From UHGV virus genome UHGV-1357484: a stretch of DNA of 41,820 bases. One strand, 5' to 3'. Origin of the DNA: a virus. The number at the start of each line of letters is the position of its first letter. The first letter of the stretch is position 1. The translations under genes were made by a program, and so were the position numbers. Below, one piece after another: positions 38,148 through 38,250 of this stretch. The notes beneath the pieces are model-generated. The model worked only from the letters and a program-made list of their open reading frames with translations, made no database searches and had not been told where the DNA came from.

Positions 38148-38176
38148 TTGAAACGCAAACGCTGTGATGGTACAAT
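38148..38176 (+). promoter_or_regulatory. Near-consensus sigma70 promoter TTGAAA-N17-TACAAT on the plus strand
   Basis: TTGAAA at 38148-38153, a 17-nt spacer, TACAAT at 38171-38176. It diverges from the HNH gene start. Confidence 0.5.
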
Positions 38177-38183
38177 TCTATTA

Positions 38184-38250
38184 GGAAATCTTCTAACATA
38201 GTTTGTTTTATTTAGTGGACCACTGCGGAAACAGTGGTCTTCTTTTTTTG
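38184..38250 (+). ncRNA. Candidate small noncoding RNA of about 65 nt, from promoter to intrinsic terminator, with no ORF
   Basis: Transcript from about 38184. Terminator hairpin GACCACTG-cggaaa-CAGTGGTC at 38218-38239, then TCTTTTTTT. No ATG in the interval. Confidence 0.4.

Follow-up and report, generated by a model that had tools for sequence, protein, structure and literature searches.

Does the short interval at the entry to the packaging operon of an enterococcal phage encode a small RNA (sRNA) of its own, directed against every gene around it, and what would such an RNA do there? The phage is represented by the virus genome UHGV-1357484, whose 41,820 nucleotides were analyzed as a whole and are referred to below as the window. 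It is a temperate siphophage or prophage, and its nearest relatives are prophages of Enterococcus avium, E. raffinosus, E. malodoratus, E. dongliensis, and Enterococcus sp. AZ128. Late-gene control in temperate phages of Gram-positive bacteria, covering both packaging and lysis, is currently explained by activators of the RinA/ArpU type alone. An antisense sRNA cassette that is conserved and under strong selection, placed where the packaging operon begins, would bring RNA into the late switch as a further layer, with a bearing on spontaneous induction, phage-phage interference, and transduction, whose generalized and lateral forms are driven in enterococci by terminase activity.

Every ORF of at least 90 amino acids from 17138 to 41698 lies on the minus strand, in agreement with a sequence-only reading of this DNA that had described a plus-strand unit amid minus-strand genes. 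In the order of transcription, a YopX gene and a phrog_154 ORF lead to the gene for a RinA-like activator, which is followed by an ORF-free stretch and by a small ORF with its terminator, t2. Beyond the interval in question come a 74-aa ORF, which is the first gene of the packaging operon, then terS, terL, and the portal gene. Table 1 lists the features of this region together with the parts of the proposed sRNA unit, for which we use the term cassette.

The promoter proposed earlier, TTGAAA-N17-TACAAT, is present, and the TG of an extended -10 can be added to it. Also as described, an interval of about 65 nt runs to a GC-rich hairpin and a U-tract; the hairpin consists of nine pairs, one G-U and eight Watson-Crick, five of the latter being G-C. 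The promoter agrees with the consensus at 10 of 12 positions, a level reached three times within 35000-41820, and the cassette's is the only one of these three matches with the TG extension. Its -35 begins 19 nt from the start codon of the divergently transcribed 74-aa gene and 4 nt from the Shine-Dalgarno sequence (SD) of that gene, AAAGGA at 38143..38138. Transcription is predicted to start at A38183 or G38184 and to yield an RNA of about 67 nt, folded into an open, AU-rich 5' arm of 34 nt and a terminal hairpin (MFE -16.3 kcal/mol, z about -2.2 to -2.5). On the minus strand, an A-run precedes the hairpin and no Us follow it, so the terminator is one-way, acting in the plus direction only. 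It converges with t2, the tails of the two being separated by about 3-12 nt, and t2 follows the cassette in many relatives too.

Table 1. Positions in the window of the proposed sRNA cassette and of the genes and signals around it.
Feature	Position	Strand	Remarks
RinA/sigma-70-region-4-like late activator gene	39605..39144	-	TIGR01636, 28.6 bits, under its cut-off
TTGTCAATACCCTAAAATAGTATTATCAGAGAG block with structured RNA	about 39112..38972	-	candidate late promoter and leader or antitermination element
ORF-free stretch of about 600 nt after the RinA-like gene		-	contains a tRNA-Lys relic and the terminator 38521..38501
53-aa FtsK-gamma-like ORF, followed by t2		-	Pfam, 29.8 bits against a cut-off of 30.6
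Terminator t2 of the upstream small ORF	38253..38285	-	stem 38285..38263, tail TTATTTTGCG
-35 hexamer TTGAAA	38148..38153	+	sRNA promoter
17-nt spacer CGCAAACGCTGTGATGG	38154..38170	+	3' end forms the extended -10 TG (38168-38169)
-10 hexamer TACAAT	38171..38176	+	preceded by TG-G
5' arm AGGAAAUCUUCUAACAUAGUUUGUUUUAUUUAGU, predicted unstructured	38183..38216	+	from folding; start site placed by the position of the -10
Terminator stem-loop GGACCACUG-CGGAAA-CAGUGGUCU	38217..38240	+	9-bp hairpin
T-tract TTCTTTTTTT	38240..38249	+	U-tail of the intrinsic terminator
74-aa ORF, first gene of the packaging operon	37905..38129	-	phrog_1202
terS	37887..37459	-	phrog_2538
terL	37481..36063	-	Terminase_6N type

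The interval had also been said to have no start codon. This is correct for ATG and incorrect for TTG and GTG, each of which occurs once, in neither case with a Shine-Dalgarno sequence. Promoter-like strings are no commoner in the region than in shuffled sequence (18 found, 19.6 expected), so an argument built on the single sequence is weak. Rfam 15, searched over the whole window, gave no matches at gathering thresholds. A permissive Rfam search of 38050-39250 returned sub-threshold minus-strand matches over the hairpin only: STnc480 at 23 bits (threshold 72), sar RF00262 at 17.4 (43), and BSnc120 at 16 (114). The cassette reaches the gathering score of none of the Rfam 15 families, sar and the phi29 pRNA included, and ARAGORN finds no tRNA or tmRNA in the window.

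Comparison with relatives provides the stronger test. Relatives of the 74-aa protein were collected from 80 viral-contig loci and seven genome loci, and the same architecture is found at the same place in about 60 of these 80 plus seven loci. A covariance model of the cassette, R1, was searched against the window and 98 related loci. It finds a single match in the window (80.2 bits, E 1e-11), where the next best scores 19 bits, and 81 copies in the related loci, each immediately upstream of the first packaging gene. Every copy in gene-oriented loci runs opposite to that gene, and a looser census by regular expression counts 108 antisense units versus 4 in the sense orientation. The distance from the -35 to the start codon of the neighboring gene is 17-22 nt in relatives, including a locus whose neighbor ORF is unrelated (L123); in three loci (L133, L111, and L118) it is terS itself that the cassette sits upstream of, and there the distance is less fixed. 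Many relatives lack a cassette (L004, L087, L060-L080, phiFL2A), which shows it to be dispensable for late expression. The INPHARED phage collection contains no related intergenic DNA; the 74-aa gene alone matches there, weakly, in three phages without a cassette. Our pattern scan of metagenomes proved too unspecific, with one true cassette (L222) among 120 rows. No description of such cassettes in enterococcal phages was found in the literature searched, and by sequence comparison they are an undescribed modular family of temperate siphophages of the Enterococcus avium group. Some relatives carry, 1.3-1.9 kb upstream of the packaging genes, a conserved 118-nt antisense-oriented unit with a promoter-like sequence and a terminator (for example L001 1087-1204 and L027 449-566, both on the minus strand of the locus); this unit is absent from the window.

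About six types of cassette can be told apart by sequence, namely W, the type of the window, and A, B, C, D, and E. Some stand alone; others are strung head to tail in arrays of two or three, with units of different types spaced at about 100 bp. Such arrays read, for example, C+D+A in E. avium and E. raffinosus, B+D+A in Enterococcus sp. AZ128, and elsewhere B+E or A+D; on the minus strand of the respective loci, arrays span 2205-2481 in L089, L092, and L027, 2190-2480 in L086, 2292-2480 in L019, and 2300-2480 in L010. The arm of the window cassette is homologous to the type-B arm, with which it shares the blocks AUC(C/U)UU and RUUUGUUUU. Conserved islands stand out within the arms; type A has AACAACCC and CUUUUUCA, types B and W have AUCCUUU and UUUGUUUU, and within this B/W supertype the 5' ends are variable and the 3' blocks conserved. 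The body of type D, CTTGTTACATAAG, resembles the -35/spacer region of type A, TTGTTATGTAAG, which suggests that cassettes arose from one another by duplication and recombination.

Promoter conservation was assessed in an alignment of 23 distinct cassettes, A1, and in a separate comparison of 16 promoters. The TTG of the -35 is kept in all 16 promoters compared and in 20 of the 23 rows of A1. Across A1, the TG, the TA, and the final T of the -10 (TAnnnT) are invariant or conserved in at least 90% of rows, and the 17-nt spacing is constant. Cassettes of types D and E and that of L133 have unrelated spacers, yet they retain the -35, the spacing, and the -10. Type-B promoters are 97-100% identical to one another, far above the 68-74% seen at third codon positions of the adjacent gene, and this difference points to purifying selection on the promoter.

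The terminator is conserved as a structure. Its helix is 99.5% paired in A1, against 23-64% in controls with a slid register, and compensatory, double-sided changes occur in five of the eight pairs; the covariation score of the helix was reached by none of 500 shuffles. A T-run follows the hairpin in every cassette, and all types fold alike, into an open 5' arm of 12-35 nt and a terminal hairpin. There is no conserved ORF on either strand: no SD-preceded ORF is common to the types, and the window type has none. A type I toxin-antitoxin system of the Fst/RNAII kind would call for a small hydrophobic toxin ORF on the opposite strand, overlapped by the antisense RNA, and no conserved ORF was found on that strand of the cassettes. 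An sRNA gene is generally expected to have a conserved promoter of its own, a Rho-independent terminator with covariation, and no conserved ORF, and the cassettes show each of these.

The covariance-model matches, the promoter positions, the constancy of place and strand (both fixed in 81 of 81 copies), and the covariation of the helix together carry the case beyond chance. We conclude from this conservation that 38148-38249 on the plus strand is very probably an independent sRNA unit, made up of an extended -10 promoter for the housekeeping sigma factor, an RNA of about 65 nt, and an intrinsic terminator, and the compact sRNA gene with signals of its own postulated in the sequence-only reading is supported by this evidence. 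The opposite reading would have a promoter-like string and a terminator-like hairpin meet by accident in AT-rich intergenic DNA, where, as noted, such strings are as frequent as in shuffled sequence. It is scarcely credible, since diagnostic positions, spacing, strand, and location are kept in 81 copies and at least six types; judged by the same comparison, chance juxtaposition or a mere terminator is very unlikely.

The unit could be conserved for its DNA and not for its RNA, its resemblance to a promoter and its hairpin then being incidental or structural. Most relatives share a motif in the promoter spacer, TGTAAGCGTTA(CA), whose positions are kept in 13-16 of the 16 promoters compared. It is near-invariant in types A, B, and C, and in type B it forms a 13-bp palindrome, TGTAAGCGTTACA, to which CGCAAACGCTGTG corresponds in the window (29-bp promoter); the motif of the window, CGCAAACGCTG, is five transitions away from that of the relatives. 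A spacer is seldom kept this constant, which suggests an operator. A DNA-level element without a functional RNA, serving as a platform for a regulator or for TerS at a pac site, would account for the conserved motif and its palindromic form in type B, for a location just upstream of terS, which is also where the pac sites of SPP1-type phages lie, and for the recurrence of T-tracts with a period of about 100 bp in arrays. We nevertheless regard it as improbable. Cassettes of types D and E and that of L133 lack the motif and still keep the promoter hexamers with their 17-nt spacing, while compensatory changes preserve a helix of RNA type that always has a T-run behind it on just one of the strands. 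Neither TerS nor the RinA-like protein changes along with the motif: the window, with its W motif, and type-A phages have TerS in common at 100% identity, and the RinA-like proteins of W-, A-, and B-type phages agree at 96%. Nor does the motif appear anywhere else in the window, where a search for extra copies found none. The idea of a repeated operator was rejected as well, the motif being present in a sole copy and varying independently of both proteins.

Alternatively, the functional strand could be the minus strand, read in the late sense as a 5' UTR or leader-peptide element, the plus-strand signals being a by-product. This reading gains something from the cassette abutting the RBS of the first gene and from micro-ORFs on the late-sense strand of type A, where an SD precedes ATG AAA AAG (MKK..., 9-26 codons). 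Types W, B, and C, however, do not have the micro-ORF, it has been lost in two variants of type A, and in the remainder its length and frame vary. The hairpin, with As before it and no Us after it on that strand, does not serve the reading either; no consistent minus-strand promoter was found, and the fold of the late-sense leader is unremarkable (z -1.9). Function on the late-sense strand is therefore quite improbable. Examples of the type-A micro-ORF are found at 2384-2480 in L010 and at 129-229 in L003, and it may be a translated leader feature specific to this type.

What the sRNA would act upon depends on the origin of late transcripts. After the RinA-like gene, the window and the loci L091, L086, and L004 share a conserved promoter-like block, TTGTCAATACCCTAAAATAGTATTATCAGAGAG. 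In the window, an RNA of about 90 nt with a long stem follows it (MFE -31.7 kcal/mol, z -4.96), and block and RNA together are a candidate late promoter with a leader or antitermination element, as far as sequence and folding indicate. Two sense terminators, at 38521..38501 and 38285..38263, separate the block from the packaging genes. No direct repeats turned up when they were sought after the RinA-like gene. In cassette-less relatives the terminator abuts the RBS and leaves no room for a promoter, so late expression there would have to come from upstream through terminator read-through; in this phage group it possibly proceeds through processive antitermination. A late promoter hidden within the cassette may be an alternative origin of late transcripts. 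Phage phiFL2A has three TTGGCGG repeats directly after arpU, about 730 nt upstream of terS, and these have been shown experimentally to be ArpU sites needed for terS transcription (PMC3753634). The arpU-terS leader of phiFL2A, whose late promoter is experimentally mapped, holds no antisense cassette. From this architecture and the analogy with phiFL2A, we infer that late transcripts cross the cassette in antisense. The sequence-only reading had offered three functions, an antisense regulator of late transcripts, a packaging or cos-associated RNA, and a decoy, and the first of these fits the architecture best.

As a mechanism for the sRNA unit we tentatively propose a lock acting in cis, by countertranscript and convergent promoters. 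The cassette invariably occupies the gap between the final sense terminator of a long late leader and the RBS with which the packaging operon opens, and it always points against the late genes. Late transcripts would start just downstream of the RinA-like activator gene, at about 39090, read through the two sense terminators to reach the packaging genes, and then traverse the cassette in antisense. The sRNA, made constitutively, would pair perfectly with leaky read-through RNA over about 65 bp, RNase III would have this duplex as its substrate, and degradation by the 5'-3' exonuclease RNase J would follow. Polymerase firing from the sRNA promoter would at the same time collide with incoming late polymerases. 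The packaging genes would in this way be kept silent in the lysogen and in early infection, and massive late transcription would swamp this lock or threshold filter.

The sRNA overlaps neither the RBS nor the coding sequence of its neighbor, so any effect in cis would be exerted through RNA stability or transcriptional interference. Two variants, one in which the sRNA pairs where translation of the neighbor is initiated and one with an anti-SD/SD switch in the late leader, found no support. The invariant insertion site and RBS spacing suggest a role tied to the terminator-RBS junction. The arm islands and the near-invariant TGTAAGCGTTA spacer are not needed by a purely cis action, and they hint at a trans target or a protein partner. 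With about six natural types and arrays of one to three units, action in cis versus action in trans is directly testable.

Countertranscripts of a related kind are known from plasmids of enterococci, streptococci, and staphylococci. RNAIII of pIP501 (inc18) and RNAI/II of pT181 are small antisense RNAs, made constitutively from within the leader region of an essential operon, and they act in cis on the nascent leader. Such control depends on an attenuator terminator that the sense leader carries downstream of where the RNAs pair, whereas at the cassette the sense terminator lies upstream of that point. No minus-strand terminator was found between 38182 and 38130, where countertranscript attenuation would place one.

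Among phage RNAs, lambda OOP and P22 sar are about 70 nt long, each having a constitutive promoter and an intrinsic terminator and being transcribed against a phage operon. OOP acts on cII through duplex formation and RNase III cleavage, and sar blocks translation of ant. The two overlap the cII 3' end and the ant RBS, respectively, whereas the cassette RNA would cover only a presumed leader; they belong to immunity regions, the cassette to the packaging operon. The sub-threshold match to the sar model, moreover, lies on the wrong strand. The PR'-tR' unit of lambda, which makes 6S RNA, and its counterpart StxS place a short RNA between a constitutive promoter and a strong terminator where the late operon begins; they are co-directional with the late genes and are a substrate of Q antitermination. 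The cassette likewise heads a late operon in a phage presumably needing terminator read-through, but it points the opposite way.

The closest parallel in layout comes from lambdoid (Stx) prophages of EHEC. Their anti-sRNAs AsxR and AgvB measure 51-60 nt and come with a promoter and an intrinsic terminator of their own. They lie past the late regulator, at a conserved moron site within the leader of the late operon, and run antisense to the transcript of that operon. Their groups are related without being identical, the 5' ends varying and the 3' parts being kept (Tree et al. 2014, PMC4104026). The enterococcal cassette resembles them as a very short prophage RNA with its own signals, lying antisense in the late leader, all of this here predicted from sequence. 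It has no sequence or Rfam similarity to them, it abuts an RBS, and it is arranged in head-to-tail arrays of one to three units, whereas AsxR and AgvB are arranged as convergent pairs. The host is also different, being Gram-positive here. AsxR and AgvB depend on Hfq, which enterococci are not known to possess.

A moron, in the concept of Juhala and Hendrix, is an autonomous promoter-gene-terminator unit set between otherwise contiguous elements (Cumby et al. 2012, PMC3594210). In L004, L087, L068, L071, and L136-L139, the RBS of the first packaging gene comes straight after a sense terminator, and about 60 other loci have one or more cassettes at exactly this junction. The cassette is thus inserted between elements contiguous in related phages, as morons are, and it is presumably expressed from the repressed prophage; unlike them, it has as its product an RNA of about 65 nt instead of a protein. 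By these comparisons the cassette is in kind a phage short antisense RNA like OOP, sar, and AsxR/AgvB, and evolutionarily a moron. Three things about it are unusual across the loci compared: it docks at a fixed point, where terminator and RBS of the packaging operon meet; it comes in modular types; and it forms tandem arrays.

The likeness to AsxR and AgvB raises the chief alternative to the cis lock, that the cassette, too, acts in trans. As a moron sRNA of this sort, it would use its 5' arm to pair with mRNAs or sRNAs of the host or of competing phages, and the leader would be a tolerated insertion site. A self-contained promoter-terminator unit between elements adjacent in relatives is consistent with this, as are the combination of several types in arrays, the lack of structure in the arms on folding, and the pattern of variable 5' and conserved 3' parts in B/W with islands in type A, which recalls AsxR/AgvB (PMC4104026). 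A trans-acting RNA, on the other hand, would have no need of a position and spacing so strictly fixed with respect to the first packaging gene, and the window offers no supported target, so that action in trans seems to us rather unlikely, if worth keeping in view. The best non-self site for the sRNA in the window lies in the RinA-like mRNA, at 39514-39546 (-28.2 kcal/mol, the best of 12 shuffles giving -24.4). It was rejected as a target because non-cognate loci score equally well and RinA-like genes 96% identical stand beside other cassette types, so that the site does not co-vary with the type of cassette.

A further reading extends the proposed cis lock to other phages. Cassettes would confer a type-specific, RNA-based secondary immunity or exclusion of late genes, in which each type (W, A, B, C, D, E) silences the packaging operon of whatever genome has the matching leader. 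Stacks of up to three types would lock packaging by the phage itself and by related superinfecting or co-resident phages and satellites, and a protein would release the lock via the near-invariant, operator-like spacer motif. We consider this speculative and unlikely. If true, it would make the arrays an exchangeable RNA 'immunity cassette' at the head of the packaging operon, of a sort undescribed for Gram-positive phages.

The labels given earlier to the two genes flanking the cassette fared unequally. The 74-aa protein had been called HNH; it matches nothing in Pfam, NCBIfam, or PDB, its sole match being phrog_1202, and the label was dropped. FtsK-gamma-like remains as a description of a likeness just under the Pfam cut-off. 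An association with cos, also suggested at that time, is unsupported because TerL is of the Terminase_6N type. An HNH-motif endonuclease beside terS/terL, the mark of an HNH-terminase cos packaging module, is likewise not found here. The family of the 74-aa ORF is a widespread first gene before terS in enterococcal phages, and one relative is labeled 'DarA-domain' in a GenBank record.

The leader upstream of the cassette has features of its own. At 38587-38653 (-), a relic of tRNA-Lys(UUU) scores 27.6 bits, against an Rfam tRNA threshold of 29, and was missed by ARAGORN; compared with the intact tRNA-Lys of L010 and L118, it lacks 6 nt in the 5' half of the anticodon stem. A weak match to YrlA (Y-RNA-like, 23 bits) overlaps the relic, and phiFL2A has a tRNA-Arg at the equivalent place of its arpU-terS leader. 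At 39119-39146 (+), a hairpin with a T-run abuts the stop codon of the RinA-like gene. Its orientation is wrong for a terminator of that minus-strand gene, and it may instead be a stop for antisense transcription out of the non-coding region 38545-39118.
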